A stretch of DNA of 64,000 nucleotides from Trueperaceae bacterium. Its GTDB lineage: Bacteria > Deinococcota > Deinococci > Deinococcales > Trueperaceae. A program made the position numbers and the translations under genes. Positions within the stretch are counted from its first letter, which is position 1. Each line of letters begins with the position of its first letter. The notes under the pieces are model-generated. The model was not told the DNA's origin and made no database searches. It was given only the letters and a program-made list of their open reading frames with translations. Positions 1 through 45,013 of the stretch are shown here, piece by piece. Location of the stretch: contig CBDCDZ010000004.1 in the NCBI GenBank assembly GCA_965215565.1, positions 384,001 through 448,000 on the forward strand, read 5' to 3'.

Positions 1-1
1 G

Positions 2-200: not shown

Positions 201-234
201 GTTGTGCGTGTGATGCGCGCATCTCGTGCACAAC
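201..234. repeat. 34-bp quasi-palindromic site, copy 1
   Basis: GTTGTGCGTGTGAT-GCGCGC-ATCTCGTGCACAAC. Confidence 0.85.
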
Positions 235-281
235 GTCGGTGCGTTCAAGGTATACAGCACCTTCAACGGCGGCTTACAACT

Positions 282-545
282 TTAACGAAGTCTCAAAAGC
301 TCTCGCACGCGCTGGTGCGGCAGGGCGTGCGCAGTCCGCCCCTCCGCACCCATGGTGGTCTTGGCAGCTACGAGAGCGTTGACGATCGCCTCCTCGACCC
401 CTTGCACAGTCCCTTCGAACAGCGGCGTCATCAGGCCGCTACTCAGCATCCCGAGCGCCGTTACACCCGAGCGCCTCGCCGCGCCGGAGTTCGCGGTTGA
501 GAACGCCAAGAAGATATCGCCAGAGGTGTGGGCGCCGTAGCTGCG
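282..545 (-). pseudogene. C-terminal fragment of DmpA/P1 (S58) peptidase
   Basis: SGDIFLAFSTAN and PLFEGTVQGVEEAIVNAL motifs; N-terminal part absent. Confidence 0.75.
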
Positions 546-598
546 GAAGAGTTGCGAGCGCCTGACGCACAAGGTTAGCTTTGAGAACCTCAGAAGGT

Positions 599-1297
599 CT
601 AGCGCCGCCCTGTCGGGTCCATCGGTGGCTCTTCAGAAAGAGGGCGCATAATATCCGCAAGGTCGTCACGGTCTTTGTAGACGGTGCCGTGTAGCGGACA
701 AACCGTGCGGAGCGGCTTGTCGAAAACACGCCACTGCTCCGCTAAGCGTTCAGTCATCGCTTCAGTCGGTCCCGGTGAACGCTCCAAGCGCAGCGGCTCC
801 TGGTCTTGGCGCGGCCCTGGTCCCACCGCGCAGTCGCCTGCTAAGAGAACGCCGCCGTGCGCAGACCAGTAGAGTATCACGGAGCCCGCAGTGTGTCCGG
901 GAAAGTGGATAGGCTCGAGCCCCGCCTCTTCAAGCACCTCATCCGTCACGGGGTCATCGAACTCAACGCCCGCCTGTTTTGCCTCTGGGTGAGATGCGTC
1001 GGCTGGGTGGAGCAGGATGAGTACGCCGTAGGTCTCTCGCAGCGCCCCGTACGCGTCACCTTGCCCAGCGACGTTGCGGTGCGAGAGGACGAGAACTTTA
1101 GGTGGGTAGCCCTCCTCCGCCAGCTTGTGTATGCCGCCGAGCGTCCAGTTGTAAGGTGCATCGAAGAGAACGGAGTAACCCTCAAAGAGCACGGCGAACG
1201 AATTCGGCGGGCGTCCGCTGCCGGTTGTCGCGCCCGCTTGAGGTAGGAGTACGAGGTCGTCGTAGAGATACTGGGCTTTAGGGGAGAAGAAATCCAT
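599..1297 (-). CDS. MBL-fold metallo-hydrolase (degenerate metal motif)
   Basis: LVLSHRN, HPAD, PGHTAGS, LLAGD and PLHG motifs. Confidence 0.7.
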   Translation of the reverse strand: MDFFSPKAQYLYDDLVLLPQAGATTGSGRPPNSFAVLFEGYSVLFDAPYNWTLGGIHKLAEEGYPPKVLVLSHRNVAGQGDAYGALRETYGVLILLHPADASHPEAKQAGVEFDDPVTDEVLEEAGLEPIHFPGHTAGSVILYWSAHGGVLLAGDCAVGPGPRQDQEPLRLERSPGPTEAMTERLAEQWRVFDKPLRTVCPLHGTVYKDRDDLADIMRPLSEEPPMDPTGRR

Positions 1298-1322
1298 GCA
1301 GGTCCTCCGAATTCGAGCTTAG

Positions 1323-1520
1323 CTAAGTGGTACCAAGAATATCACGCAAGCTCTTGCCCGCCTTCTCGCCAGCTTCCTCGGCACTTAACTCGTCAAAGGC
1401 GTCGGTGAAGACCTCCACCCCGACCGAATTGAGCCCGCCCGTTTGTGACAGGATGCGCACCACGGTTTTAAGGTCGAAGTCGCCCTCGCCCGGCGCTTTG
1501 CGGAAGTGCAAGAGGTCGTA
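1323..1520 (-). pseudogene. C-terminal fragment of sugar-phosphate isomerase/epimerase (TIM barrel)
   Basis: RKAPGEGDFDL and VGVEVF motifs without an N-terminus. Confidence 0.6.
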
Positions 1521-1866
1521 GGGGTGCGTTAGACTTCCTATCCCTGCGTGATCAAGGCGACAATGCAACCCGGCTCAACCGGTCGCCGTGGGCGTGGCTA
1601 GCCCACCCGGTAGCTCTCTCAACATAGGCTTTACTTCCCCCCGTGATAATACGAAAGCAAACTAGGCCGAACCGAAGACAGTTTTTCTGCTTCTGCCGCT
1701 GATTGTCGGAGTACTGCACGAATATTAATTTTCTTACAGTTCGCTTACTCTCCCGTAAATATGGCAGGCTTAGAACGCCGCGATCGTTGAGATTTGGAAA
1801 ATCGCTGTGCCGCTGTTTTGCGTGCCGGTCGCGTAAAATCTCGAGTTCGAATTTGAGTTTCAGCGT

Positions 1867-1887
1867 GGTGACCTTTTTAAGGTCACC
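1867..1887. promoter_or_regulatory. Inverted repeat upstream of nuclease gene, possible operator
   Basis: GGTGACCTT-TTT-AAGGTCACC. Confidence 0.3.
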
Positions 1888-2017
1888 CGACTCGGGAAGA
1901 AGTGCTAGGCGAAGATCCGCGTCGTTTCCATGACGGTCTACTGAAAGTGTACGATTAGAGTTGTAGCCGTATCCACAGTGACAGCGTGGGGGACTCTACA
2001 AGGTGGAGGTTTCAAAG

Positions 2018-5000
2018 GTGAAACGTGTACAAATTGTGCTGGCTGCCCTCTTCATAGGGCTGCTGGCAGCTTGTGAGAGGGACGTAGCTTCGGAGGTGCC
2101 ACTCTCGGACCTCGCGGCGAGCGACCTCTTCTTCTCCGAATATGTCGAGGGCAGCAGCTCCAACAAAGCGCTGGAGGTCTATAACGGCACCGGCGTGCCG
2201 GTCGACCTCTCGAGCTACTCGGTCGAGATTTACTTCAACGGCAACAGCTCTGCCGGTACGACTATCGACCTGATCGGCGTGGTCGCCGATGGCGACGTAT
2301 TCGTGCTCGCCGACGACGGCGCTGACCCGGCGATCCTGGCTGAAACTGATCAGACCAGTACAAGCAACTTCTTCAACGGCGACGACGCTATCGTGCTCCG
2401 CAACGACGGCGAGGTCGTCGACGCCTTCGGCCGAGTCGGTACCGACCCCGGTTTGCAGTTCGGCAGCGGCGATACCGGCTCTCAGAACAACACGCTGCGC
2501 CGCGCTGCGGACACCATGTCGGGTGACACCGACCCGAACGACGCCTTCGACCCGGCTACCGAGTACGAGGGTTTCGGACAAGACAACTTCGGTGACTTGG
2601 GCATGTTTGATGGTAGCGACCCAGCCCCGTCGATCGTCATCAACGAGGTGGACGCCGACACGCCGGGCTCCGACAGCGCCGAGTTCGTCGAGCTGTACGA
2701 TGGCGGCGCAGGCAGCACCCCGCTTGACGGGCTCGTGGTGGTGTTCTTCAACGGTTCGGACGACGCGTCCTACGAGGCGTTCGACCTAGACGGCCAGACC
2801 ACGGATGAGAACGGTTTCTTCGTCCTCGGTAACCCGGACGTAGCCAACGTCGACCTGGTTTTTGACCCCGGCAACTCTGGGGCGTTGCAAAATGGGGCGG
2901 ACGCGGGGGCGCTCTACCAAGGCGACGCGTCTGACTTCCCCAACGACACGCCGGTCACGACTGACAACCTCGTGGACGCCATCGTGTACGACACCGACGA
3001 CGGCGGCGACAGCGGTTTGCTGGACGGTCTCGGCGAAACCACTCAGTTCAACGAAGATGCGAATAATGACAAGGACAACGAGTCCAACGCTCGCGTGCCA
3101 GACGGGATGGGCGAGTTCACCGCCCAGGCACCGACGCCGGGCGCATCTAATGCTGGCGACGGCGGTAACGGAGGCGGCGACGGCGGTGGTGAGATCGGCC
3201 AGTGCGGTACCGACGCGACACTCATCAGCGCGGTGCAGGGCAGCGGCGCGACCAGCCCGTTGGTCGGCCAGACTGTCGTTATCGAAGGCGTCGTGGTCGG
3301 CGACTTTCAAGCAAGTGACGATGGCATGTTCGGCGACCTGGACGGTTTCCACGTGCAGGAAGAAGTTACCGATTACGACGCGGATGAAGAAACGTCCGAG
3401 GGCGTCTTCGTCTTCACGGGCAGCAGCGACGTGCCGGACGTGCAGGTGGGCCAGACGGTGCGCGTGCGCGGGACAGTCGGCGAATTCGAGAGTTCCGGCT
3501 CCTCGCAGACGCAGATCACCGACCCTACTGTGGTCATCTGCAGTGAGGGTGTCTTGCCCCCGGTGACCGACATTACCTTGCCCGTTCCCCCACGCAACTT
3601 CCTAGAGCGTTACGAAGGCATGTACGTACGCTTCCCGCAGAGCCTCGCCATCAGCGAGTACTTCAACTTCGACCGCTTCGGCGAGATCGTCCTGGCGCGG
3701 CCCCTGCCGGGCGAGGACCGCCCCTACCAGCCGACGGCGGTGAACGAGCCCGGCTCGGAAGCGGCGGCCGAGCGAGACGAAGACAACCGCCTCGCCCGCA
3801 TCACGCTGGACGACGGGCGCAGCAATCAGAACCCCGACCCGGCGCGTCACCCTAACGGCGAGGTGTTCGACCTGGACAACCGCTTCCGCGGCGGTGACCT
3901 CGTACAGAACGCGCTGGGCGTCCTGGATAACACCTTCGGTATCTACCGCGTCCAGCCGACCCAGGGCGCGAACTACACTCGCGTCAACCCGCGCCCGGAG
4001 GAGCCCGAGGCGGTCGGCGGCTCCCTCAAAGTCGCGAGCTTCAACGTGCTCAACTACTTTAACGGCGACGGTCAGGGTGGCGGCTTCCCCACCTCACGCG
4101 GCGCGGACGACCCCGAGGAGTTCCAGCGCCAAGAGGCTAAGATCGTCGCGTCCATCGTCGGTACCGGGGCGGACGTCGTTGGCTTGATCGAAATCGAGAA
4201 CGACCCGGCGGGCGAGACCAGCGCCCTCGACGACCTGACCGAGGCGCTCAACGCGGAGGCGGGCGCGGGCACCTACGACTACATCCGTACTGGTGATATC
4301 GGCACGGACGAGATCAAAGTGGCCTTCATCTACAAGCCGGGTACGGTCACTCCGATCGGCGACCCTGCGGTGCTCACCGAGTTTGAAGGCCGCGACTTCG
4401 TCGACCCGCGCGACATCGGACCCAAGAACCGCCCGGCCTTGGCCCAGACCTTCCGCGAGGAGGCGACCGGCGGCGTACTCACGGTGGTCGTCAACCACTT
4501 TAAGTCGAAGGGCTCGAGCTGCGGTCCGGGCGACGACGACCCGGATCAGGGCAACTGTAACGGCACACGCGCCGACGCTGCCGACATCCTGGTGGACTGG
4601 CTCGCCAGCGACCCCACCGGCAGCGGCGATCCTGACGTACTCGTCATTGGCGACCTCAATGCCTACGACAAGGAAGACCCCATCGACCAGGTTAAGGAAG
4701 GTGCGGACGACGCGGACGGCACCGAGGACGATTACGCCGACCTCAACCTCGCGTTCGAGGGTGAACTGGCCTACTCCTATGTCTTTAGCGGTCAGTTCGG
4801 CTACCTCGACTATGCGTTAGCGAACCAGGCGCTCTTGGACCAGGTCACGGGCCTCACCGAGTGGCACATCAACGCCGACGAGCCGGATATCCTGGACTAT
4901 GACACTACATTCAAAAAAGACCCGCAGGACGCGCTCTTTGAACCCAACCCCTACCGCTCCTCCGATCACGATCCGGTCATCGTAGGGCTCGACCTGACCC

Positions 5001-5422
5001 CGAGCGACGCTGAGGCACCCGTCATCACCCTGAAGCGCTCAGGTCAGACCCTCTTCCCGCCCAACCATAAGTACCGGACGCTCGACCTCGCGCAGATCAT
5101 CGCCTCGGTGAGTGACAACGTGTCCGACCTCTCTGTGTCCGACGTGGTCATCACTCGCGTCACCAGCGACGAGCCGGAGAACGGCACCGGAGACGGCAAT
5201 ACAGATGACGACATCGTCCTCGAGGGCTGCCAGGTGGTGGAGCTCCGGGCCGAGCGGAGCGGGCCTGGGGACGGCCGCGTCTACACGGTCGAGATTGCGG
5301 TGCAAGACCGGGCGGGCAACGTCGGCACGGCCAGCTACCGGGTCGAGGTGCCTAAAGGACGTAAGGACGCGGCTATTGACAGCGGCACGGCCTATAGCGT
5401 CACCGGGTGCGAGCTTCCATAG
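2018..5422 (+). CDS. ExeM/NucH-family extracellular endonuclease lipoprotein (lamin-tail domains, OB fold, EEP domain, C-terminal Ig-like domain)
   Basis: Lipobox LAAC; FFSEYVEGSSSNKALE; VASFNVLNYFNG, NHFKSKG, GDLNAY, LDY and RSSDHDP motifs; GGAGG before GTG 2018. Confidence 0.9.
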   Translation: MKRVQIVLAALFIGLLAACERDVASEVPLSDLAASDLFFSEYVEGSSSNKALEVYNGTGVPVDLSSYSVEIYFNGNSSAGTTIDLIGVVADGDVFVLADDGADPAILAETDQTSTSNFFNGDDAIVLRNDGEVVDAFGRVGTDPGLQFGSGDTGSQNNTLRRAADTMSGDTDPNDAFDPATEYEGFGQDNFGDLGMFDGSDPAPSIVINEVDADTPGSDSAEFVELYDGGAGSTPLDGLVVVFFNGSDDASYEAFDLDGQTTDENGFFVLGNPDVANVDLVFDPGNSGALQNGADAGALYQGDASDFPNDTPVTTDNLVDAIVYDTDDGGDSGLLDGLGETTQFNEDANNDKDNESNARVPDGMGEFTAQAPTPGASNAGDGGNGGGDGGGEIGQCGTDATLISAVQGSGATSPLVGQTVVIEGVVVGDFQASDDGMFGDLDGFHVQEEVTDYDADEETSEGVFVFTGSSDVPDVQVGQTVRVRGTVGEFESSGSSQTQITDPTVVICSEGVLPPVTDITLPVPPRNFLERYEGMYVRFPQSLAISEYFNFDRFGEIVLARPLPGEDRPYQPTAVNEPGSEAAAERDEDNRLARITLDDGRSNQNPDPARHPNGEVFDLDNRFRGGDLVQNALGVLDNTFGIYRVQPTQGANYTRVNPRPEEPEAVGGSLKVASFNVLNYFNGDGQGGGFPTSRGADDPEEFQRQEAKIVASIVGTGADVVGLIEIENDPAGETSALDDLTEALNAEAGAGTYDYIRTGDIGTDEIKVAFIYKPGTVTPIGDPAVLTEFEGRDFVDPRDIGPKNRPALAQTFREEATGGVLTVVVNHFKSKGSSCGPGDDDPDQGNCNGTRADAADILVDWLASDPTGSGDPDVLVIGDLNAYDKEDPIDQVKEGADDADGTEDDYADLNLAFEGELAYSYVFSGQFGYLDYALANQALLDQVTGLTEWHINADEPDILDYDTTFKKDPQDALFEPNPYRSSDHDPVIVGLDLTPSDAEAPVITLKRSGQTLFPPNHKYRTLDLAQIIASVSDNVSDLSVSDVVITRVTSDEPENGTGDGNTDDDIVLEGCQVVELRAERSGPGDGRVYTVEIAVQDRAGNVGTASYRVEVPKGRKDAAIDSGTAYSVTGCELP

Positions 5423-5487
5423 GCTCTCGGGATATAGATGGAAAGGTAAGCTGAAGGCTGCTGAGCTTCAACCTAGATGCTGAACTT

Positions 5488-5520
5488 CAACCTCCCCGTC
5501 TTACCGGGGAGGTTGCTTTG
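5488..5520 (+). terminator. Probable intrinsic terminator
   Basis: CAACCTCCCCG/CGGGGAGGTTG stem followed by CTTTG. Confidence 0.55.
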
Positions 5521-5575
5521 ACGCTCGGTAGACCCACTGATGATAAGGCTAGTTAGCCTCGGCAGACCTAACTTC

Positions 5576-5609
5576 GCTGTGCGGCGAACGCGCGCAACAG
5601 CCGTAGAAG
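5576..5609. repeat. 34-bp site, copy 2 (upstream of tyrosine recombinase)
   Basis: GCTGTGCGGCGAAC-GCGCGC-AACAGCCGTAGAAG. Confidence 0.85.
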
Positions 5610-5674
5610 CCCATTACTTCCCCAAGAACGATTCAACTTAAACCTCCGTGCAGACTACAGATCGGAGGTTTTTC

Positions 5675-6565
5675 ATGGACAAACAAGAAGCATCCACTTT
5701 GGCAAGCTGCGTTCAGACGTACTTAAAAGCCCGAAAGTTGGACGGCTACAGCGATAAAACGCTCTACTCCTATAGACTGCATCTGAATCATTTAGCCGCA
5801 GATTTAGGTGATGCTACTCCTATTAGCATGGTTAAGCTCGAGCACCTCCGCACCCACCTCACCAGCCTGACGCACCTGCAAACCTCGAGCCTAGCGAACA
5901 AGGTTCGCGCCCTTAAAGCGTTTTTCAAGTGGCTTTACGAGGAAGAGGTGTTGGAGCGTAACCCCGCGTTGAAGCTGAGGGAGCCGCGCTTGCCAGCTAG
6001 AATACCCAAAGCGCTCTCAGTTGAAGAAGTGGAGCTGCTGCGTGACGCCTGCGAGAGTTTATTGGAGCACGCCCTAGTTGAGTTCTTTTTTGCGACTGGC
6101 TGCAGGGTTAGCGAAATTCATCAACTGGACCGTATCGACCTCGACTGGCTGCGCCGGAGCGTCGTGGTCCTCGGCAAGGGCAACAAGGAGCGTGAGGTGT
6201 ACTTCGGGGCGAAGGCGGCGCTGTGGCTCAAGCGCTACTTGGACAACCGCTCAGACAACACTTTAGCACTGTTCGTCACGAAGCGACGGAGACGTCAGCA
6301 TAGCGGGACTTTAGAACATCAGCGCCTGAGCACCTCGCAAATGCAGCGCATCTTTAAGCGGGTCGCTAAGCGGTGCGAGTTGGAGGAGAAAGTGACGCCG
6401 CACGTGTTGCGCCATACACTCGCCACGCTGCTTCTCAATCAAGGTGCGCCCATCGCTGCCGTGCAATCCATTCTCGGGCACGCCTCACCCACGACTACGC
6501 AGCTCTACGTCAACCTATCCGGGGAATCAAGGCAGATGCTCTATAGGAGGCACTTCCCGCAATGA
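5675..6565 (+). CDS. Tyrosine recombinase, XerC/XerD-like
   Basis: N-terminal SAM-like domain; TGCRVSE, GKGNKER, HVLRHTLAT, ILGHAS and TTQLY give the R-K-H-R-H-Y set; GGAGG before ATG 5675. Confidence 0.92.
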   Translation: MDKQEASTLASCVQTYLKARKLDGYSDKTLYSYRLHLNHLAADLGDATPISMVKLEHLRTHLTSLTHLQTSSLANKVRALKAFFKWLYEEEVLERNPALKLREPRLPARIPKALSVEEVELLRDACESLLEHALVEFFFATGCRVSEIHQLDRIDLDWLRRSVVVLGKGNKEREVYFGAKAALWLKRYLDNRSDNTLALFVTKRRRRQHSGTLEHQRLSTSQMQRIFKRVAKRCELEEKVTPHVLRHTLATLLLNQGAPIAAVQSILGHASPTTTQLYVNLSGESRQMLYRRHFPQ

Positions 6566-6626
6566 ACCGCCGCACCTCAGCAAGCACGGGTTTTTGCGCT
6601 ACAATGTTATGTAACTAGGAGTATTC

Positions 6627-6896
6627 ATGGACGCAGCCGCGCTACCCCACCTACCTAAGCTTACAGAGTTGCCGATAAGTCTGCCCACTGACGGTGCGAT
6701 CAATATCGAGATTGTTCAAGGTGTACCTACCTTTCGAGCTTCAACTGCCGTGGTGGGTAGGATCGAGCAGCTCCTCAAGAAAGAGCAAGAAAAGGGGTTG
6801 AGCGTCTCTGAAGCGGATGAACTGGCTCAGTATGAAGAGGTCGATGACTACCTCAGCCATCTGAACCGCGTCGTTTGTAATTTGCAGAGCGCTTAG
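6627..6896 (+). CDS. Small hypothetical protein, putative partner/antitoxin of the downstream HNH gene
   Basis: AGGAG RBS; RIEQLLKKEQEKGLSVSEADEL helical motif of a type often seen before HNH genes. Confidence 0.65.
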   Translation: MDAAALPHLPKLTELPISLPTDGAINIEIVQGVPTFRASTAVVGRIEQLLKKEQEKGLSVSEADELAQYEEVDDYLSHLNRVVCNLQSA

Positions 6897-6903
6897 CGCG
6901 GGA

Positions 6904-7469
6904 GTGGCGCGACCTAAAGTACCCATCGCTCTAAGAACCGAAGTCAGAGAGCGCGCAAAGTCATTATGCGAGTACTGCCACACCGACGAGACGTGGCAGT
7001 ACGTTCCTTTTACTATCGACCACGTTGTTCCGGTCAGTCTAGGTGGTTCTATAGCAGGAGAGAACCTTGCACTTGCCTGTTTCCACTGCAATCGGTACAA
7101 GGGCGATGCGACTCAGGCTACTGACTCTTCTACGGGTCAAACCGCGCAACTATAGCAGGTATCATCTGGTTTGAGCCAATCTCACACGATAGAACAACGG
7201 CTAGCACGCACATTGTCGGATGATATCTGCGCTATTTCAGTCCAATACTTTTGATAACCGCTATATTTAACCCGAGAACGCAGCGCTGGGCAGAGCACTT
7301 CATCTGGTCGAGCGACAAGCTACGAATCGTTGCGTTGACAGCTACAGGTAGAGCGACATTGCGTGCCTTGAATCTCAACCGTGAGCGGGTACTGCGCATA
7401 CGCGAAGCGGATGTCGCTGTTGGACAGCATCCACCTCATGACGACCCGGTACAGAGTAAAGAGGTTTAG
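6904..7469 (+). pseudogene. HNH endonuclease interrupted by a MITE
   Basis: CEYC, IDHVVP, NLALACFHCN, then FNPRTQRWAEHF; removing 7153-7265 restores the frame (TAQL-FNPR). Confidence 0.88.
7151..7265. mobile_element. MITE with TA duplication
   Basis: Ends TATAGCAGGTATC / GATAACCGCTATA; homolog at 63090-63283. Confidence 0.85.
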
Positions 7470-7471
7470 GT

Positions 7472-7505
7472 GCTATGCGCGTGATGTGCGCGTTAAGCGC
7501 AGAAG
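7472..7505. repeat. 34-bp site, copy 3
   Basis: GCTATGCGCGTGAT-GTGCGC-GTTAAGCGCAGAAG. Confidence 0.8.
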
Positions 7506-7532
7506 CCGTTGGTCAGCTTTCGCTGATAGGTT

Positions 7533-7970
7533 CTAGGCTCCGTCTTTACTCTCCAGCCCCTTATAACATTTTGTTAGCAGCGCACACGCTTGCTCGATCT
7601 CCACTTGTGTCAGCTCCCGCGTCATCCGCTTTTCAACCTCAGCTACCAAACTGTGAGCATGTTCCAAGAGCGCTTGCCCCTCAGCAGTCGGTTTCACCCG
7701 CTGAATACGTCCATGCTCGGGGTGCGGCGAGCGCTCTAGCAGCGCGCCACGCTCAAGCCCGATCACGATCTGGTACATAGTCTGAGGTGTTACGAAACAG
7801 CGGCGAGCAAGTTCGGCATTTGAGAGCCCCTGCTCCTTCACCAGCTCGCCCAACGCGGCGTACTGCGGGGTCGTAAGGTCTAGTGTCGCGAGCGCTGCAT
7901 CCATGTTGCTGCGCAGCGCCGACTGAGCGCGCTTGAGGAGATAGCCGAGAGGATCAGAGGTCAGGTTCAT
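7533..7970 (-). CDS. MarR family transcriptional regulator
   Basis: LTTPQYAAL, SNAELARRCFVTPQT, LERGALLERSPHPEHGR. Confidence 0.9.
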   Translation of the reverse strand: MNLTSDPLGYLLKRAQSALRSNMDAALATLDLTTPQYAALGELVKEQGLSNAELARRCFVTPQTMYQIVIGLERGALLERSPHPEHGRIQRVKPTAEGQALLEHAHSLVAEVEKRMTRELTQVEIEQACALLTKCYKGLESKDGA

Positions 7971-7982
7971 GGCTTGGCATTA

Positions 7983-8029
7983 TATCAGGGTACTGATAAT
8001 CTAGCTACAAGTTATCAGGGTACTGATAA
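7983..8029. promoter_or_regulatory. Two identical palindromic operators (likely MarR)
   Basis: TATCAG-GGTA-CTGATA at 7983 and 8013 between divergent genes. Confidence 0.75.
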
Positions 8030-8043
8030 ATAGGAGGTCAAGA

Positions 8044-8418
8044 ATGAATGTAAAAACGAAGGTTGACGGTCCCGACTTCATTGCGCTACAATGGCGCGAT
8101 TTGGACCCTGGCAAACGTTTCTACCACGAGACGCTAGGGCTAGCACTCGCCCCGCAGAGCCCGCCTGGTGCAGTTGTTTTCGCTACCGAGCATATCACCT
8201 TTGCCGTGCGGACGCCGCTCGTCAATCTAGACCTCACCCCACATCGGGGTTATGGCGTGGCACTCTGGTTCAAGGTAGACGACAGCGCGAAGCTACGTGA
8301 CCATCTGGTTGACAAGGGGGTTGAGGTCACGTCGGACCTAGTAGACGGTCCCTTTGGCAAGACCTTTTCCATCCGGGACCCTGAGGGTTACCTCATCACC
8401 CTTCACGACTGTGGCTGA
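8044..8418 (+). CDS. VOC/glyoxalase family protein
   Basis: RFYHETLGL and DGPFGKTFSIRDPEGYLI. Confidence 0.88.
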   Translation: MNVKTKVDGPDFIALQWRDLDPGKRFYHETLGLALAPQSPPGAVVFATEHITFAVRTPLVNLDLTPHRGYGVALWFKVDDSAKLRDHLVDKGVEVTSDLVDGPFGKTFSIRDPEGYLITLHDCG

Positions 8419-8863
8419 GGCGCATTACTGGGTCAACACAGTGTCGCGCGATCACGTATGGGCAGGGGTCGAGGGCGGCTTCACCCAAGCGGATCACGGC
8501 AAGCGCACACGCCTCGAGCGTCTAAGAAGAGGGAACATGCTGATTTTCTACTCTCCTAGAACTGCTTTTAGGGGTGGGGAGGTGCTGCAGGCGTTTACCG
8601 CCTTGGGCGAAATCATAGACAACGAGCCCTATCAAGTCGAGATGACGTCCGACTTTCATCCCTGGCGACGTAAGGTGAGCTTCGAAGGGGTGAAAGAAGC
8701 ACCGGTACGTCCTTTACTAGAAGACCTTACCTTCGTTACTGATAAACGGAAGTGGGGCTTCCCCTTTCGGCGCGGGCTCTTCGAGATCAGCCCGCAGGAC
8801 TTCGAGCGGATCGCTAAGGCGATGGGCGCACAGGTCGAGATGCCAGCACAGCTATTCGGTTGA
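8411..8863 (+). CDS. EVE domain protein
   Basis: YWVNTVSRDHV, GFTQADHGK, FYSPRT, RRGLFEISPQDF; GTG start overlaps the VOC stop. Confidence 0.85.
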   Translation: MAEAHYWVNTVSRDHVWAGVEGGFTQADHGKRTRLERLRRGNMLIFYSPRTAFRGGEVLQAFTALGEIIDNEPYQVEMTSDFHPWRRKVSFEGVKEAPVRPLLEDLTFVTDKRKWGFPFRRGLFEISPQDFERIAKAMGAQVEMPAQLFG

Positions 8864-8872
8864 ACTATGGTG

Positions 8873-8906
8873 CTTCTGCGACTAACACGCGCGGTTGACG
8901 CATTGC
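8873..8906. repeat. 34-bp site, copy 4
   Basis: CTTCTGCGACTAAC-ACGCGC-GGTTGACGCATTGC. Confidence 0.75.
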
Positions 8907-9101
8907 GCCGTCCCCCGCCAGTTGCACAAAACGCCATCCGCAATAGCTGTCACTTTTTCAGTGTTCGAGGGGCGCAAAGGCGCAGATGAACGCATACTCT
9001 TTTCACTGCACAGCCGAATCAGGCGCTTAGGTTGGCGCGTTTAGCGCCTTTCAGTTCCCCGCCTTCGCTGCGGCGATTTCGACGATGGTGCCGCAGAAAC
9101 A

Positions 9102-9588: not shown

Positions 9589-9622
9589 GCTGTGCAGCAG
9601 ACGCGCGCGTCTCTTGCAGAGG
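9589..9622. repeat. 34-bp site, copy 5
   Basis: GCTGTGCAGCAGAC-GCGCGC-GTCTCTTGCAGAGG. Confidence 0.85.
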
Positions 9623-22107: not shown

Positions 22108-22141
22108 CTTCTGCGACGAACGCGCGCAACTGTTGCGTTAG
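22108..22141. repeat. 34-bp site, copy 6 (overlaps GNAT stop codon)
   Basis: CTTCTGCGACGAAC-GCGCGC-AACTGTTGCGTTAG. Confidence 0.85.
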
Positions 22142-22773
22142 CGCATCTCTTGTACAGGTCGCCACATGAACCAGAAGGGCGGTCCGCCGGGTAGCAGGCT
22201 CTCCTCATAGCGGATAATGTTGAAGCCGTGCTTTTCGTAGAGCCGCACATTAGACTCGAGCATCGTCTCCAAGTAGCAGCCATATCCGGTTCTCTCGCTC
22301 CGCCCGAGCCCTTCACGAACTAGATACGATCCAACCCCCTGCCCTTGCTTTTCTTTAATAACACCTAGCACGACCAGATACCAATGAGGCTCCTTAGGGT
22401 GGGCGACGTCGATCACGCTGCCCAGCTTGGCAAGGCGAGGAAAAGCCCGCGGGTCGGCAAGGGCGATACGTAGGAGCGGTAAGGCGGCGCGCACCTGTCG
22501 TCGCAGGGTCATCACCGCGTGACCCGGAGGCAGCCACACCGCTACACCGGCAATACGGTCGTCCTCGAGCGCGACGCTTACGTGTCCGTACCATAGGGCG
22601 TCCGTGAGGGCGACTCGAAAAAAAGCGGGCAGTAGCCTTTTGCGCTTCGCCTTATCAGACCAAACACTCATAAACTGGGGAGCGTCATAGAAGCTCTCAG
22701 CTAAGACCGCTGCGGTCTCGTCTAAGCGCGAACGGTCTGAGAGGTCGAGTATCTGGATGGATGATGGGGTCAT
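22138..22773 (-). CDS. GNAT family N-acetyltransferase
   Basis: HWYLVVLGV, QGQGVGS, YLET, NVRLYEKHGF. Confidence 0.9.
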   Translation of the reverse strand: MTPSSIQILDLSDRSRLDETAAVLAESFYDAPQFMSVWSDKAKRKRLLPAFFRVALTDALWYGHVSVALEDDRIAGVAVWLPPGHAVMTLRRQVRAALPLLRIALADPRAFPRLAKLGSVIDVAHPKEPHWYLVVLGVIKEKQGQGVGSYLVREGLGRSERTGYGCYLETMLESNVRLYEKHGFNIIRYEESLLPGGPPFWFMWRPVQEMR

Positions 22774-22867
22774 AGGGCTACCTCGCCCTTTAGGTTAGCG
22801 CGAGTGCTGCCCCGGCGCATGTGCTGAAGGTCATGCGTCAAAACGTTCTGGAGCTCCTTGATACAGC

Positions 22868-22901
22868 TTAGTGCGACAGACGCGCGCGACTCTCGCATTG
22901 C
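22868..22901. repeat. 34-bp site, copy 7
   Basis: TTAGTGCGACAGAC-GCGCGC-GACTCTCGCATTGC. Confidence 0.8.
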
Positions 22902-22993
22902 GTTCAGGCACCCCTTGAGCCGCCTTCCAGTCGGCGTGGCAAAAAGCGGGCAGTCCTGCCACCAATAGTGGTACAATTGCCAAGAGGTGCAAG

Positions 22994-23386
22994 ATGACCG
23001 TCCAACAGTTAGTTCAAGGCAACAGCACGGAGCGCATTGCAGCAGTTCGCGAAGGACTCTCCTTCGAGAGCTTCGTCACGCTGCGTGAAGCCTTAGACGT
23101 GGGTACAGATGAGCTCGCTCAGCTTTTGGGCATTCCCCGTCGCACGCTGACCAAGCGGCAGAGCGAGGGCGTCTTCAAGCTTGCCGAGAGCAACGCCATC
23201 AGCCGGGTGGCTCGCGTGTACAAGGAAACGCTCGACTTCTTCAGTGATGAGGCAGACACGCTGAGATGGCTTAAAACGCCTCTGCCCGCGCTTGGCGGCG
23301 CACCTTTAAGCTTACTTGATACCGATCCAGGCGCTGACGCGGTGAGTACACTCCTCACTCAGCTCGCTTGGGGCATCTATCCTTGA
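22994..23386 (+). CDS. Xre/MbcA/ParS-type antitoxin
   Basis: LGIPRRTLTKR HTH; WLKTPLPALGGAPLSLLDT..G. Confidence 0.9.
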   Translation: MTVQQLVQGNSTERIAAVREGLSFESFVTLREALDVGTDELAQLLGIPRRTLTKRQSEGVFKLAESNAISRVARVYKETLDFFSDEADTLRWLKTPLPALGGAPLSLLDTDPGADAVSTLLTQLAWGIYP

Positions 23387-23838
23387 TCGTCGCTTGGCGG
23401 CTCACCCACGAGCGCTTCAAAGACCAAGCAGTAAGCGGTAACGGTGGGCTGTTCGCCCCCGGACGTTGGCATAGCCAAGGAAAACGAATTGTATATAGCT
23501 CAAGCAGCTTGGCGCTTGCCACGCTCGAGCTGTTCGTGAACTTGCAGAACAAGCGGCAGCTCGCCCACTATGTCAAGAGCCGAATAGAGATTCCTCAAGA
23601 GCTTACCGAAACCCTAGAGGAAGATGCTCTAAGGACGTTTTTACGGGCTCCCGACCAGTTTGACAGCCGTGGCTACGGCGACTCGTGGCTCGCTGGGGAG
23701 CGAAGCTGTGTACTCCAGGTTCCGAGTCGGGTGGTACCGCAGGAATGGAACTACCTCATCAACCCATTGCACACAGATTTCGAGAAGATCGTCGCCTCGA
23801 CTAGCCTATACGAGGTGGATGAGCGCCTTTTGCTATAA
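23383..23838 (+). CDS. RES domain toxin (MbcT/ParT-like)
   Basis: GRWH, YSSSSLALATLE, VPSRVVPQEWNYLINPLH; TTG overlaps the antitoxin stop. Confidence 0.9.
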   Translation: MIVAWRLTHERFKDQAVSGNGGLFAPGRWHSQGKRIVYSSSSLALATLELFVNLQNKRQLAHYVKSRIEIPQELTETLEEDALRTFLRAPDQFDSRGYGDSWLAGERSCVLQVPSRVVPQEWNYLINPLHTDFEKIVASTSLYEVDERLLL

Positions 23839-23851
23839 AGCAGTAGTCAGA

Positions 23852-23885
23852 GTTGTGCGTGAAACGCGCGCGTCACACGCAGAAG
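23852..23885. repeat. 34-bp site, copy 8
   Basis: GTTGTGCGTGAAAC-GCGCGC-GTCACACGCAGAAG. Confidence 0.85.
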
Positions 23886-33160: not shown

Positions 33161-33272
33161 AAGCGCTTAGCTAAGGGATCGAGTGAGATCAGATACCAAG
33201 TTGTTTTAGGCAGCTAAATATGCAGGCATTCCAGGTTGCTCGCTACGTTAAACTAGATCAAGTAAGCACTCA

Positions 33273-36263
33273 ATGAGGAGGAAGCCGATACTCTATACGT
33301 TAGGAAAACTCTCCCTCGGAGACGCAAGCTTTACTCGGCTCAAGCCACTCATCTTACTGTCCTATTTGAGTTTGGAGGGACCGCAAAGTAGGGCGCATCT
33401 CGGTGAGCTTCTTTGGTCCGACGCGAAAACTCCTCTAGGCGGTCTTTCCGTCGCACTAAGCCGACTTAGACAGGTTTGCCCCGGTAGTATCGAAGCTGAC
33501 GAATACGTTGTTAAAAGTACTTTGCCCACCGACGCGCTCGCCTTCACGAGAGCCGCACAGCAAAGACAGTACAAGGCGGCTCTAGACCTTTACCAAGGAC
33601 CTTTTTTAGAAAATGTTGTCCTATCCGACTGGAGCGTCACGCTAGAGTCGTGGGTCTATACCACCCGTGAAATGCTCGCGGCGCAGGCCCAAACGTGCCT
33701 CTTAAAGCGCGCCAAACGCTACGCCGAAGAGAGCCGTGTAGACCTCGCCGCGCAGTACGCTGAAACCGCCTATACCCTGCCCGCCGCGCCTGCACCCGAA
33801 CCTGAAACGTTGACCCTCATCTTCGATTTGCTCCAAGAAGGTAGGCATGAGGCGGCGCAAGCCGTTGCCGCAGAAGCCGAAGAGTTGGGGCTTACGCTCG
33901 TTAAAGCAGCCTCATCACGCGCTAAAACTAGCATGATCTCTCATAACCTACCTCCGTCAAAAAACGCCTTTATCGGACGTCACGAAGAGATAGTGACGCT
34001 CAGCACACGGCTCAGCGACCCGAATTGCCGACTTCTCACTCTTAAAGGACCAGGAGGTATAGGAAAATCACGGCTCGCGCTGAACGTAGCGCGCGCGCAA
34101 CTCTCTCAGCCACATTTTAAGGACGGCGTTTATTTCGCCTCACTCGAGTCCCTTGGGTCTCCTGACCTTGTTCCGACGCGCATTGCTGAAGTGCTGGAGC
34201 TATCGTTAAGCGCTCAAGAGTCTCCTATTGACCTCATCATGTCCTTTTTGCATCAGAAGCGGGTACTTCTTGTGCTAGACAACTTCGAGCATCTCCGCGA
34301 GGCCGTGCTAACCCTCGCGGAAATCTCGGCGGCGTGCCCCCTGCTCACCTGTCTTGTTACCTCACGTGTTCGGCTTAACCTCAAAGACGAGTGGGTTTTT
34401 CGGGTAGACGGTCTAGCGTATCCCACCTCTACTGAACAGCTCGACGTGCTTTTAGACTATGACGCGCCAAAGCTCTTTGCGCAACGTGCACAGCAAGCGC
34501 TAATAAATCTCTCTTTGACGCGCTCAGACTATCCCGATCTTGTAAAGCTCTGCCGCTTGACAGGGGGAATGCCTTTGGCGCTTGAACTTGCGGCTGCTTG
34601 GTTGCGAATTATGTCCCTTAGGGAAGTTGTCGAAGAGGTAGAACGCGGCGCTGGACTCCTCGCCAGTGATTACCGCAATAACGATACGCGGCACGAAAGC
34701 ATTTCAGGGATTCTCGAGCAGTCGTGGCAGCGTGTAAGTAAAGATGGACAAGAGGCGCTTCTTAAGCTTTCCGTTTTTGAGGGCGGTTTTACCCGCGCAG
34801 CCGCCGCGCAAGTCGCGGGTACGACGCTATCTACCTTAGCGAGTTTGCTAGACGCTTCAATGTTGAGTAGGGAGACAGGTGAGCGTTACGGGTTTCACCC
34901 GCTAACGAAACAGTACTTTCTCCAACGACTGCTCGAGGATTCAGCGCACTTTCAAGCTATCAAGTGCCAACACGCTTCGCACTACCTTTCCCTTGCAGAA
35001 GAAGCGGAGTCCGAGCTGAGAGGTGAAAAGCAAAAGGGATGGCTCGAGCGACTAGACCAAGAGCTGAGTAACTTTCGGTCAGCGCTCCACTGGTCCACTG
35101 GTCAGGGGGAAGCCGAGATAGCTTTGAGGTTAGCCAGCGCTCTGCTCACCTTTTGGGAAGTTCGCGGTTACTTTGCCGAGGGGCTTGCTTGGCTTGAACA
35201 GTCACTCAAGCTTGTAGGTAAGATAGACGAAAGAAGCAGAGTGAAAGCTCTCCATGCGGCAGGTACATTGGCTGAGCGACAAGGAGACCTAAAAGCCGCC
35301 CACACCTACTTTGAAGCCGGTCTAACATCAGCTAGAAGCTTAGGCGACCAAGCGCTCATCGTTGAACTGCTTATAGGTATGGGCGTTACACAGATGTATT
35401 TAGGGAACTATGCTGATGCTCAAACCTACTTTGGAGAAGGCGTAGACATAAGCAGAAGCTCGCAAAACGTGCGGGGTTTAGGAAGGTTGCTGAGCAGCCT
35501 TGGAATTGTAGAAACTTACCGGGCGAACTACTCCGCCGCTCGAGCCTATTTCGAGGAAGTTATACCTTTAAGAAAGAATTCGGGCGATATACTTGGCTTA
35601 GCAGCATCCTTGCAAAACTGGGGACTTTTAGAAGTGAAAGAAGGAAACTATTCAATGGCTCGCACTCTTGTCGAGCAAAGTTTAGAAATTACCGAAAACT
35701 TAGGACATGTATATGGCAGCGCTGCCTTGCTTAACAGCTTAGGATTTTTGGAAGAACATGATGGCAATCTACCAGCGGCAAAAAGATATTACCGAAGGTG
35801 CTTGCTGCTAAGAGACAGGATGAGCGACCAGCGCGGCAGAGCGGAAGTGCTAACCAACCTAGGTGAAATTGCCTTGAGACAGAAGAGTTACGCCGAAGCC
35901 CATAAACACTTTGAGCAAAGTCTGAAAATAAGTTACAGGTTGGATTTTAAGTCCCAAACAATCGAAAACATAGAAAAATTTGCGTGTCTAGCATGTTTGG
36001 TGAGTGACTTTACCTATGCTGTACAGTATTGGTCTTACGCGGAGAGGCTCCGACGAGATATAGGTGAGCCTTTAGATATGCCCGAAAAGCAACGCTACGA
36101 CCAAATTCTCGCTACTGCATACGACCATCTCGACGCCAAAGCGCTTGAGATTGCTCAGGAAGCCGGACAACAGTTGACGGTTGAAGAGGTTGTCGATCAT
36201 ATATTGAAGCAACTAGAGTTGCCTCGAGATAATTCCGCCAAAGATTCTTTTACTATACTGTAG
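33273..36263 (+). CDS. AfsR/SARP-like STAND regulator (HTH-BTAD, NB-ARC ATPase, TPR)
   Basis: GPGGIGKS P-loop, LVLDNFEH, GMPLALELAA, multiple TPRs. Confidence 0.88.
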   Translation: MRRKPILYTLGKLSLGDASFTRLKPLILLSYLSLEGPQSRAHLGELLWSDAKTPLGGLSVALSRLRQVCPGSIEADEYVVKSTLPTDALAFTRAAQQRQYKAALDLYQGPFLENVVLSDWSVTLESWVYTTREMLAAQAQTCLLKRAKRYAEESRVDLAAQYAETAYTLPAAPAPEPETLTLIFDLLQEGRHEAAQAVAAEAEELGLTLVKAASSRAKTSMISHNLPPSKNAFIGRHEEIVTLSTRLSDPNCRLLTLKGPGGIGKSRLALNVARAQLSQPHFKDGVYFASLESLGSPDLVPTRIAEVLELSLSAQESPIDLIMSFLHQKRVLLVLDNFEHLREAVLTLAEISAACPLLTCLVTSRVRLNLKDEWVFRVDGLAYPTSTEQLDVLLDYDAPKLFAQRAQQALINLSLTRSDYPDLVKLCRLTGGMPLALELAAAWLRIMSLREVVEEVERGAGLLASDYRNNDTRHESISGILEQSWQRVSKDGQEALLKLSVFEGGFTRAAAAQVAGTTLSTLASLLDASMLSRETGERYGFHPLTKQYFLQRLLEDSAHFQAIKCQHASHYLSLAEEAESELRGEKQKGWLERLDQELSNFRSALHWSTGQGEAEIALRLASALLTFWEVRGYFAEGLAWLEQSLKLVGKIDERSRVKALHAAGTLAERQGDLKAAHTYFEAGLTSARSLGDQALIVELLIGMGVTQMYLGNYADAQTYFGEGVDISRSSQNVRGLGRLLSSLGIVETYRANYSAARAYFEEVIPLRKNSGDILGLAASLQNWGLLEVKEGNYSMARTLVEQSLEITENLGHVYGSAALLNSLGFLEEHDGNLPAAKRYYRRCLLLRDRMSDQRGRAEVLTNLGEIALRQKSYAEAHKHFEQSLKISYRLDFKSQTIENIEKFACLACLVSDFTYAVQYWSYAERLRRDIGEPLDMPEKQRYDQILATAYDHLDAKALEIAQEAGQQLTVEEVVDHILKQLELPRDNSAKDSFTIL

Positions 36264-36412
36264 CTAAGTCGAGTTCGAGACGAAGATATTACGGCGCTAT
36301 TTCGACCCCCGCTGCCACCACAACATCAGCACCCCTGCCCCGATAAAAAGGAGCGGTAACCCCCCGAGAGCCTACTCACAGGGTCCTTGACTAGCCCGTA
36401 CTGCACCCTCTC

Positions 36413-36766
36413 ATGGACCCTCGCGTGGGGGAGGCTATCGAACTCGGCATCGCGGTGCTAGACGAAGCGCTTTCGGTGCTCGAGTTCGCCTATCAAGTAG
36501 ATAAACCGAGGGGTTTGCAGGTTACGTGCGATGCTATTGGAAACTACTTAGATACGCTCTTTGCTGCTTGGGTCACCCCTGTAGACGACGCGCTGCCTGC
36601 ACCGTCGCTTGCTGAACTTGAAAACGCAGGGCTAGCGCTCGCCAGCCAAAAGACATTCGAAGCGCGTTTAGAAGAGGTGAGTACGCGGCGGCGTCTGCTG
36701 CGTGCGCTCGTCGGGCGGAACGGCTGGGAGTGGTGGCAGGTGGAGGATACGGCTCAGCCTAACTGA
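36413..36766 (+). CDS. Hypothetical protein
   Basis: 117-aa ATG ORF, no recognised motif. Confidence 0.5.
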   Translation: MDPRVGEAIELGIAVLDEALSVLEFAYQVDKPRGLQVTCDAIGNYLDTLFAAWVTPVDDALPAPSLAELENAGLALASQKTFEARLEEVSTRRRLLRALVGRNGWEWWQVEDTAQPN

Positions 36767-36778
36767 TTCGAGTTGAAG

Positions 36779-36812
36779 CTTCTGCGGTTAACGCGCGCGT
36801 TCGCTGCAGAAG
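36779..36812. repeat. 34-bp site, copy 9
   Basis: CTTCTGCGGTTAAC-GCGCGC-GTTCGCTGCAGAAG. Confidence 0.9.
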
Positions 36813-42188: not shown

Positions 42189-42222
42189 CTTCTGCGAGAG
42201 ATGCGCGCAACTGGCGAAAGCA
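42189..42222. repeat. 34-bp site, copy 10 (right arm degenerate)
   Basis: CTTCTGCGAGAGAT-GCGCGC-AACTGGCGAAAGCA. Confidence 0.7.
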
Positions 42223-42289
42223 CCACCTCTATGCTGATCTCCAAGCGACGCCTATCACTATATGTTGCTACGTGCACTAAGGAGCCGCA

Positions 42290-42664
42290 CTAACCCTCAG
42301 CACGCCCGTCCGCATCCGGCGAGAACTCCATATAGACCCGCCTGACGTGCAAGAGCGCGCTCACGCGCAAGGCGCAGGCGAGCCCCAGCCAGCTCGCGAC
42401 CGCCAAGCCGAACAGGACGCGACCCAGCGGCAGACCGGGGAGGAGTGAGAGGCACGCAGCGGCGAGTACCATAATTGCCGCGTAGCCGAGCGTCACGTAG
42501 TCCTGCTCGGTGCGCTCGAGCCAGAACCCGTCCAAGGCCGCCTCGCGCGGGCGGGGGTCCTTGAGGCCAGTGACCAGGGCGACGCCTAGGAAGAGGACGT
42601 ACTCAGCCCACAGTGCTGAGAAGGAGACGGTGGAGACGGTCCAGAGGATGAGGTCGTTGCTCAC
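42290..42664 (-). CDS. Hypothetical membrane protein
   Basis: Three hydrophobic segments; GAGG before GTG. Confidence 0.6.
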   Translation of the reverse strand: MSNDLILWTVSTVSFSALWAEYVLFLGVALVTGLKDPRPREAALDGFWLERTEQDYVTLGYAAIMVLAAACLSLLPGLPLGRVLFGLAVASWLGLACALRVSALLHVRRVYMEFSPDADGRAEG

Positions 42665-43408
42665 TGCGTTACCTCGAGCCCGACTGGACGTGCTGTAGGA
42701 ACACAGGCTAGAGATGAGGCGGAAACGGCGTCAACATAGCGTGGGGAGAGATAGAGCATGATGTGAAGGCGGTGCAAGGTGGCGGTAAGCGAAGCCTTAG
42801 CAGCCGCGCTGGTATGACTAAGGTAGCACCCCGCGAATGCCGAGATTCTTACTGTGCGAAGTCAGTTTCGCGTGCGTTTTGCGCCCGGCAGTACGACTTT
42901 GTAAGGTCTGCGTGAGGTCGCGTAGCACATGACAAACACATAACTATTGGTACGCAGAGAACACGCGACGGGGTTTGCGGTCGAGATTGTTGGTACGGGT
43001 TTCCGTAATTGCCGGTACTGGTTTACACGATGGCCGTAATTGCGGGTACTCGTTTTGCATAGAGCGCCTTCTTTGAGCAACGATCTTAGCGCTACCGACG
43101 TGCAATTGAGGTTTTCTAATACCAACTTTTTCGGGTGCAGTACCATATGTTGTGACGTAGTACTAAAGGTTTTGGAGGTTCACAGCCCGCTCTGCTATCT
43201 GGCAGTGTTACCCGTCTCCTCTGAACTCAGCGCACCTTGTCATCCCCCATTGCAGAGCTGTCAGCGCTCGCTTCACCAGATAGGATGTATAGAGCCTATT
43301 GGAGCGTCCGGTAAATCTTGTGCTCTTGTGCAGGTTCCGAAGTTGAGTTTTCACGTTTTGAACGTAAACCAGCAGGTCGATAAGCGGTAGCGACTTGCTG
43401 GACGCACC

Positions 43409-43442
43409 ATTCTGCGGCGAACGCGCGCGTCTGTTGCAAAAA
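43409..43442. repeat. 34-bp site, copy 11
   Basis: ATTCTGCGGCGAAC-GCGCGC-GTCTGTTGCAAAAA. Confidence 0.85.
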
Positions 43443-43616
43443 GATCTGTTGTAGTAAGCCCAGCACGCTGCATAAGCGATACCTTTATCATGAAGACGCT
43501 CTATGCACGGCTAAGGTAGCTGTCTCACCGAGGAAAGCAACGATGTGGCAAGGTAGAGGTGTGTAGTGCTAAGTTAGAGCGTCAAGAGTTTACATATGAG
43601 CAAGAAGGGAGAATGC

Positions 43617-44726
43617 ATGCATTCTGTTCTAAAGGGGTTCTTCGTTATCCTCACGGCTCTCTGTGTCTGGGTCACGCCAATGGAGGTTGCGCAGGCGCAG
43701 GAAGCTGCGCGGCCACTGCCGAGCCCCGAAGAACTCACGCAGCTTCTGACCGCATTCGACGTTCCTGGATTGGCGATGGCGTCCTTGACGAATTGCGAGG
43801 TCGATAACGAGGTCATCGTCGCGGGTTCGGCCACATTGGAGCCGGACGTAGCCGTCACGCCGCAAACCGCGTTTGAGGCAGCCTCCCTGTCAAAACCGGT
43901 GTTCGCTTGGTTAGTGCTCACGCTCGTTGACGAAGGCGTCATCGACTTGGACCGCCCTATGGCTGAAACGTTTGACTATACACGGATTCCCGATAAAGCT
44001 GCGTATGCGAAGATTACGCCCCGCATGGTGCTCACTCACCGGACCGGTCTACCCAATTGGGTGAATGAAAGTGTCGATTTCTACGAGCGAACGACGCCGA
44101 TCCCTTTTGAAACGCCACCCGGTACGGCCTACAGCTACTCAGGTGAGGCATTTCAACTACTTCAGGCTTTTATGGAGCGCGAGACAGGGAGGACATTACA
44201 ACAGCTTTTCCATGAGCGACTTGGAGAGGTCATGCCACATTCGACGTTCAGAGCTCCCCTGCCTGACGGACTCACGCTTTCTCGAGGCTACCAGAGCGCC
44301 AGCAGTCCTGCGAGCAGGGACGACCTCGACCTCGAAGCACGTGGGGCTGCCGCCTACTCGCTCGTCACGACTGCGCAGGACTACGCTCGCTTCCTCTCGT
44401 ACGTATGCAAAGGCGAGGGCCTGCGTCCTGAAACCCACGCTGAGATGTTAAGGCCGCAGTCGGGCGTCCCGGAGAGCGAAACGCCCTTCCCCACGTCCTA
44501 CGGTTTGGGTTGGCTGCTCGCAGATATCGGGGCGGAAACGTTCGTTGGTCATGGCGGCAACAACGACGAGTACCGGGCCTTCGGCGGCTTCGCTCGAGAA
44601 AGCGGCGACGGTCTCGTGATCTTCACCAATGGGGCCACCGGTCAGGCGCTGATCGACCTGCTAATTGCCTCACCCCCGCCAGCCCCGGACGCAAGCCATC
44701 ACACTGGACTTGCGGGTCAAAAATGA
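43617..44726 (+). CDS. Secreted serine hydrolase (beta-lactamase-like family)
   Basis: ASLSK (SxxK), LTHRTGLP, YSYSG, HGG. Confidence 0.88.
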   Translation: MHSVLKGFFVILTALCVWVTPMEVAQAQEAARPLPSPEELTQLLTAFDVPGLAMASLTNCEVDNEVIVAGSATLEPDVAVTPQTAFEAASLSKPVFAWLVLTLVDEGVIDLDRPMAETFDYTRIPDKAAYAKITPRMVLTHRTGLPNWVNESVDFYERTTPIPFETPPGTAYSYSGEAFQLLQAFMERETGRTLQQLFHERLGEVMPHSTFRAPLPDGLTLSRGYQSASSPASRDDLDLEARGAAAYSLVTTAQDYARFLSYVCKGEGLRPETHAEMLRPQSGVPESETPFPTSYGLGWLLADIGAETFVGHGGNNDEYRAFGGFARESGDGLVIFTNGATGQALIDLLIASPPPAPDASHHTGLAGQK

Positions 44727-44979
44727 CCGCACCGACATCGAAGCGGGAAGCGACCGAGTTTTAGAGACGGCCCTCGACTTCCTGCGCGTAGGTGCCGTCC
44801 AGCCCTGGGACCGGGCGGCGCAGAAACCCACAACGCGGCTCCCCCCAGAATGAAGCAATACGTGGAGCTGCAAATTAATGTGGAACAGAACGTCGACCCG
44901 CTTTGCCTCGTATGGGCAATAAGGTGTTCTGCACGTCACACCACCAGCTCACTCGCGCTAGTCGGCTGAGCGCTCCTTT

Positions 44980-45013
44980 GTTAGGACAGAGTTGCGCGCA
45001 TCTCACGCATAAG
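44980..45013. repeat. 34-bp site, copy 12 (left arm degenerate)
   Basis: GTTAGGACAGAGTT-GCGCGC-ATCTCACGCATAAG. Confidence 0.65.

Follow-up and report, generated by a model that had tools for sequence, protein, structure and literature searches.

Single-enzyme Xer/dif and lox systems resolve dimers by way of one or two sites whose spacer is directional. In the pdif modules of Acinetobacter, as described in PMC13141974, distinct XerC and XerD arms flank a 6-bp spacer and module types alternate. The attC sites of integrons keep secondary structure rather than sequence, according to PMC9024848. This analysis is focused on a 64,000-nucleotide stretch of DNA (the window) from a Trueperaceae bacterium (Deinococcota; GenBank assembly GCA_965215565.1, contig CBDCDZ010000004.1, here C4, positions 384,001 to 448,000 of the forward strand), which carries a family of 34-bp palindromic sites and a gene for a Xer-like tyrosine recombinase at window positions 5675-6565. 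From comparison of sequences, we consider it probable that the palindromes are exchange junctions and that the exchange is catalysed by this single Xer-like enzyme, which is borne on a module of its own.

Each site comprises a 14-bp arm, a 6-bp core and a second 14-bp arm. All twelve copies described in the original prediction are found, with no strand assigned: 201..234 (core 215-220; detected by pattern and matrix), 5576..5609 (directly upstream of the recombinase gene; core 5590-5595), 7472..7505 (core 7486-7491), 8873..8906, 9589..9622, 22108..22141, 22868..22901, 23852..23885, 36779..36812, 42189..42222, 43409..43442 and 44980..45013, the left arm of which is worn. The core is GCGCGC in 10 of the 12, with a single mismatch in the copies at 7472 and 8873; the arm consensus ends in R-W-Y instead of the predicted R-A-Y. 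The sites are not chance occurrences: a one-mismatch pattern recovered 11 of the 12 against 0.34 expected, with at most two in 100 shuffles, and a weight matrix built from the window sites (score ≥20) retrieved 39 sites from the 4.49-Mb genome (34 on C4 and five on contig C2) versus one in the reversed genome. The proximity of sites to stop codons was also rightly noted, since a stop codon of a listed open reading frame (ORF) lies within 20 bp of 7 of the 12 sites and the site at 22108 overlaps the stop codon of a GNAT gene; three of the seven stop-proximal ORFs have no Pfam match or a weak one. A thirteenth, worn site at 540..573 (score 16.5) had been missed; on its right, the flanking sequence resembles that of an intact site in the related genome G002 at 87%, and a homology edge coincides with the worn site. 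The supposed reversed recurrence at 51747 of the arm variant shared by the sites at 5576 and 43409 was dropped as evidence because it is a lone arm without a core, scoring near the reversed-sequence background.

The comparison set comprised the islands of this genome (G000) and 40 20-kb stretches of three relatives, which were picked around listed sites or enzyme genes and cover only part of the relatives' sites. Among 178 sites, 17 lie inside a predicted ORF and the remainder are intergenic. The core is near-invariant and is self-complementary in 167 of 187 sites. The arms of one site do not co-vary, as had been proposed, their complementarity being 8.05 of 14 positions versus 7.95 when partners are shuffled (P = 0.23, n = 187). 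The core-proximal 7-mers are perfectly palindromic in 12 cases, versus 3.9 in shuffles, some sites being mutual copies. Furthermore, the sites cluster in islands, with 26 of the 33 gaps between C4 sites shorter than 15 kb against 3.6 expected under uniform placement; GC skew was too noisy to locate the islands relative to the terminus.

Homology between genomes breaks at these sites. Site centres have 193 of the 1008 distinct alignment ends no more than 30 bp away, whereas 10.3 are expected. Sites in both partners coincide with both ends of 16 of the 305 alignments and with a single end of 51. For each of the 70 site pairs (187 sites) in which one homologous flank starts at the site, the opposite flanks bear no relation to each other. 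In these pairs, the arm next to the shared flank is identical at 11.5 of 14 positions and the far arm at 7.7, random arms agreeing at 8.0; the inner arm is the more similar in 61 of the 70 pairs, equal in 4 and lower in 5. Where flank identity reaches at least 99% (15 pairs), the break is clean at the core in 10. Recurring modules fall into 17 families that comprise 38 of 152 modules, some of which recur identically (100%) far apart in the same genome, and none of the 11 adjacencies between recurring modules was seen twice. That breakpoints would lie at the core, that partners would exchange arms and that synteny across sites would not be conserved had all been anticipated, as had the clustering in islands. 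The median module size is 2.3 kb, divergent gene pairs are frequent, and gene direction at 148 junctions is mixed (74 co-directional, 58 convergent and 16 divergent). On these flank and arm comparisons, the 34-bp palindromes are junctions of gene-module exchange within and between genomes.

Several blocks of the window illustrate such exchange. The MarR-VOC-EVE module (7492..8886) aligns at 97% over 1405 bp to a site-bounded block of the relative G001 that has other neighbours, and both alignment ends lie inside cores. The contigs of sequencing run X2 contain both the window junctions and the G001 junctions of this module; the junctions are therefore not assembly errors, although X2 may be the source sample and thus speaks against misassembly without representing an independent strain. 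The GNAT module (22128..22881) matches G002 at 89% over 769 bp, the limits of which are two window sites, and the site at 22108 is the end of a 3761-bp match to G001. The Xre-RES toxin-antitoxin pair (22888..23865; Pfam assignment) matches G001 at 87% over 1000 bp, from a site to a core. Thus, the MarR-VOC-EVE, Xre-RES and GNAT blocks have site-bounded copies elsewhere with different neighbours, in agreement with the proposal that sites delimit self-contained modules, whereas the intervals 9589-22108 and 23852-36779 (12-13 kb, with insertion sequence (IS) remnants) are not single compact modules. The module of the recombinase, an 89-aa ORF and an HNH gene (5596..7485; Pfam and contigs of run X1) is flanked by sites as suggested, but its HNH gene is interrupted by a 114-bp TA-flanked insertion (7151-7264), the empty site of which is seen in run X1. 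In that run, from another study, the HNH block runs through core 7486-7491 and continues into a different arm and flank. The serine hydrolase module (PF00144; 43429..44993) has a paralog behind a site on contig C2, and a 306-bp duplication elsewhere on C4 ends inside the site at 44980. The contigs of run X4 contain next to none of the window stretch. No joint between two window sites occurs in the contigs of X1-X4 over 1-10500 (15 of 50 joints listed) or of X1-X3 over 7290-9740; these contigs are low-depth assemblies, which drop rare forms, and are silent on the rates of excision and inversion.

Some further observations concern the surroundings of the sites. The 114-bp miniature insertion has very many copies in the genome, and a second small repeat family lies near window 9753-9867. 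An IS is present in two copies (99.9% identical), at window 29147-30494, where it adjoins no site, and at C4:35836-37184, 5 bp from the site C4:35797; the latter position brings to mind the IS families that target pdif sites. Contig C2 (49.7 kb) has five internal sites, starts with a right arm (bases 1-14, the first base of the arm missing) and ends in 15 bases that form a worn left arm plus one base; no replication gene was recognised by eye among its ORFs of at least 180 aa. Judged from these ends, C2 may be an excised or strain-variable site-bounded block in part of the population. On contig C3, the initial 40 bases have a second occurrence about 11 kb further downstream, suggestive of a tandem duplication or an assembly repeat.

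The candidate catalyst is encoded on the plus strand at 5675..6565 by a gene for a 296-aa protein (PF00589), which starts at ATG 5675 after GGAGG, the ORF list giving GTG 5648 instead. The catalytic residues R144, K171, H243, R246, H269 and Y278 are retained, and this R-K-H-R-H/W-Y set together with the core-binding and catalytic domains characterises a simple-type tyrosine recombinase. The protein scores under the XerC, XerD, XerA and IntI cut-offs; its closest solved structures are XerD and archaeal XerA, and its closest named relative, at 87%, is encoded at another Trueperaceae locus (L048). Of 10 gene copies, 6 are preceded by an intact site 95-99 bp before the start codon and a seventh by a worn site, and in most copies another site follows within about 2 kb; hence, the recombinase rides on a cassette. 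The DNA beyond the upstream site differs between genomes, so that the gene stands behind an ordinary site rather than at a fixed attI platform. The four of 41 relatives that carry the enzyme are the four with 9-45 sites, the others having 0-1. Across 128 family genomes, the enzyme is found in 7, strict sites in 9, both in 6 and neither in 118; these genomes are kin and non-independent, and hence no P value is given. Of the family genomes with sites but no enzyme, one has a single doubtful match. This co-occurrence, with the position of the gene, makes the 5675-6565 enzyme the likely catalyst of module exchange. C4:381238-382146, which is 3 kb to the left of the window, contains a second, broken copy of the gene; the site upstream of that copy is worn.

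A predicted RNA hairpin at 5640..5671 (plus strand; -16.3 kcal/mol, z -3.4) pairs the ribosome-binding site of the recombinase gene, and the same or a near-identical stem stands upstream of the other gene copies compared. If formed, the hairpin would limit translation of the recombinase. For a subgroup of Bacillales, too, the recombinase's ribosome-binding site is predicted to be paired in a hairpin, z being below -1.5 at 24 of 57 loci (noted for L065, L071, L079, L088, L105, L113, L118 and L126).

The original prediction left room for any of three local recombinases to act on the sites, and only the 5675-6565 enzyme tracks them. The enzyme at 51777-52532 was rejected as catalyst, being present in 1 of 128 family genomes and adjoining a Tn3 transposase gene, and so was that at 57191-58222, which was not found (E≤1e-50) in the site-richest genomes G001 and G002 and of whose 22 carriers 19 have no strict site. 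At 51777-55678, the tyrosine recombinase gene is divergent from the Tn3 transposase gene amid RHS, VWA-nuclease and SMI1/KNR4 genes, an arrangement which we take to be that of a TnpI-like resolvase.

A close parallel to this system is offered by the Acinetobacter pdif modules as portrayed in PMC13141974: accessory modules lie in arrays between short sites with a 6-bp spacer, crossover occurs within the site, and toxin-antitoxin pairs and small enzymes are common cargo. The differences are equally clear. In that account, variable pdif spacers restrict partners, host enzymes act and modules of types C and D need to alternate, whereas here the core is near-invariant and self-complementary, one symmetrical matrix scores both arms and arms pair at random. 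Moreover, the arrays lie on the chromosome, and the candidate enzyme comes from one patchily distributed, module-borne gene. By eye, about 4 of 11 positions of the arm match the XerD arm tabulated in PMC13141974.

Integrons resemble the system in having exchangeable cassette arrays and a dedicated tyrosine recombinase; orphan arrays resemble attC clusters that have no integron-integrase (CALINs), and the related Bacillales arrays described below are co-oriented as in integrons. Unlike attC, the 34-bp sites conserve sequence, and their arm complementarity is no better than that of shuffled partners. The IntI model TIGR02249 gives 108.6 bits against a cut-off of 265, with the match confined to residues 203-280, and the IntI4 structure matches residues 210-281 only. 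The system further differs from integrons in its lack of a fixed attI, the location of the enzyme on a cassette and its larger modules, often of divergent gene pairs. With XerA, XerS, XerH and Cre/loxP it shares the use of one enzyme for both arms, but it has dozens of sites, a symmetric core and an enzyme found in few genomes of the family. Chromosomal Xer/dif dimer resolution was rejected on the same grounds: there are 39 sites rather than one, and the enzyme occurs in 7 of 128 family genomes. The proposal that the sites are neither attC nor dif is upheld by the IntI score, the lack of attC structure, the missing attI platform and the missing distinction of XerC and XerD arms. The simple, Xer-related recombinase class of PMC8138268 accommodates the enzyme; Firmicutes and Bacillus are not named in its main text. 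No prior description of these sites or of the enzyme family was found in the open-access literature searched, and one may exist elsewhere. The system is a separate family within a known kind of tyrosine-recombinase cassette platforms, and in the Trueperaceae it is orientation-free.

Relatives of the enzyme are found in a second phylum. About 1100 stretches of the genome collection searched (an estimate) match the motifs of the enzyme, and the best 80 are mostly from Bacillales. Around 79 enzyme-relative loci, 512 homologous 14-6-14 sites were counted, with none in reversed DNA, using a Bacillales site matrix that was found after seeding and trained on the same 79 loci, reversed DNA being its control. 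At least one homologous site is present in 68 of the 79 loci and at least three in 53. An unseeded palindrome count over the 79 loci gave no excess at the 6-bp spacer (1458 versus 1359-1411), and the window matrix revealed no such array beside Bacillota enzymes, with a few scattered scores up to 24. The window enzyme is 44% identical to a Priestia copy, the 14-6-14 site of Bacillales is homologous to that of the window, and the site sequence shifts with the enzyme clade between the two phyla. The same swap of flanks is seen in 69 of 71 Bacillales site pairs. Bacillales cores are asymmetric (palindromic in 6 of 512), neighbouring sites are co-oriented in 406 of 419 cases at a median spacing of 0.85 kb, and Bacillota genes follow the direction of the core (252 versus 20 among co-directional junctions). 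The Deinococcota form is set apart by its near-invariant self-complementary core and by mixed gene orientation at junctions. In a quick tree with very long outgroup branches, which gives no direction of transfer, the family enzymes form one clade (99) among Bacillota-type sequences. A plasmid collection yielded 10 distant enzyme matches (39-41%). Locus-specific core variants occur in the Bacillales arrays L119, L085, L091 and L123; in the last (Gottfriedia) the core is palindromic in 5 of 7 sites, possibly an independent move to symmetry. Group II intron domains lie within two Bacillales arrays (L096:15401-18476 and L115:14077-14276).

A mechanism may be proposed from tyrosine-recombinase chemistry, in which monomers bind the arms and strands are swapped across the core. 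One enzyme monomer would bind each arm of double-stranded DNA, and strands would be exchanged across the 6-bp core. As both arms fit a single protein and the core is the same read either way, every site could be a partner for every other, in whichever orientation. Since core symmetry removes direction, excision, insertion and inversion would be open to single modules as well as to blocks. Little enzyme would be made owing to the hairpin over the ribosome-binding site, and arrays from which the gene has been lost would stay frozen until a recombinase module returns.

A number of observations weigh against catalysis by this enzyme through strict exchange at the core. In three of the 15 recent pairs the outer arm, too, is shared wholly or for the most part, and in two the 7 bp of the inner arm nearest the core are not the same; judged from these sequences, strict exchange at the core leaves 5 of the 15 unexplained, and such off-core joins could stem from branch migration of the intermediate or from arm-to-arm copying. 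In the family, G059 (seven strict sites) and G060 (three) have no enzyme match even at E≤1e-8, whereas G148 carries the enzyme (71%) and has no strict site, only a worn one upstream. Among 151 sampled Bacillales genomes, 118 have sites and 24 a close enzyme, and 96 of the 127 without a close recombinase match still have sites. Five site-rich genomes without a close match offer one 68% fragment, two matches at 36-38% and two at only 30-33%. Furthermore, with the matrices used, sites are few or lacking around the enzyme's nearest relatives from Bacillota (L049-L056). Sites without an enzyme would be explained by loss of the mobile recombinase cassette or by a second catalyst; by hand count, enzyme carriers have on average 8.0 site matches and the other Bacillales genomes 2.4.

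The off-core breaks speak for an unlikely alternative, in which the sites serve as short homology linkers or the exchange takes a hybrid path, only the first strand exchange being made by the enzyme or transformed DNA annealing at the sites, and the host finishing the join by branch migration or replication. The excess of palindromic core-proximal 7-mers (12 versus 3.9) likewise hints at arm-to-arm copying. By contrast, arms of different sites are only about 8/14 alike, which is too little for RecA pairing, the core is where most recent breaks lie, and no catalytic residue has been lost.

It is also rather improbable that the sites are junctions on which another enzyme, host Xer-type or otherwise resident, acts and that the 5675-6565 enzyme is a passenger. 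Site-bearing genomes without the enzyme, in both the Deinococcota family and Bacillales, would suit such a catalyst, and about 7 of 11 positions of the Bacillales arm are like the XerD arm listed in PMC13141974. However, the genome has only six PF00589 matches; the NCBIfam scan covered the three window enzymes, which all score under the XerC and XerD cut-offs, and the broken second gene copy accounts for one of the other three matches. Neither of the other window recombinases follows the sites, the recombinase gene stands at a fixed distance behind a site, and site sequence changes with the enzyme clade between phyla. That the sites are REP-like RNA stem-loops, terminators or transcription-factor operators, as their palindromic form and their intergenic, often stop-proximal position might suggest, is scarcely credible, as the arms do not co-vary, the sites are clustered, an Rfam scan of the window matched no family, homology breaks at the core and arms follow their flanks; repetitive extragenic palindromes and bacterial interspersed mosaic elements (REP/BIME) were accordingly rejected, neither genome-wide spread after core genes nor a co-varying stem being found.

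Exchange catalysed by the module-borne Xer-like enzyme may have a wider bearing. Integrons are extremely rare in Firmicutes, according to PMC9024848, and the enzyme-site pair is a testable answer to the question of how accessory islands of Firmicutes are assembled gene by gene. The coexistence of directional and palindromic natural cores provides a ready test of whether the 6-bp spacer sets array polarity, and a recombinase consisting of one protein, working on a symmetric site and accepting arms that vary, could serve genome shuffling. We lean slightly towards a third natural cassette platform beside integrons and pdif, consisting of a self-mobile Xer-like recombinase and one 34-bp site family, present throughout most of the Bacillales sampled and carried into Deinococcota, where the core turned palindromic and the platform orientation-free. 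If this is true, a directional array became a system in which any site joins with any other and multi-gene modules are excised, inserted and inverted at dozens of places on the chromosome, nature's equivalent of genome scrambling with symmetric lox sites.

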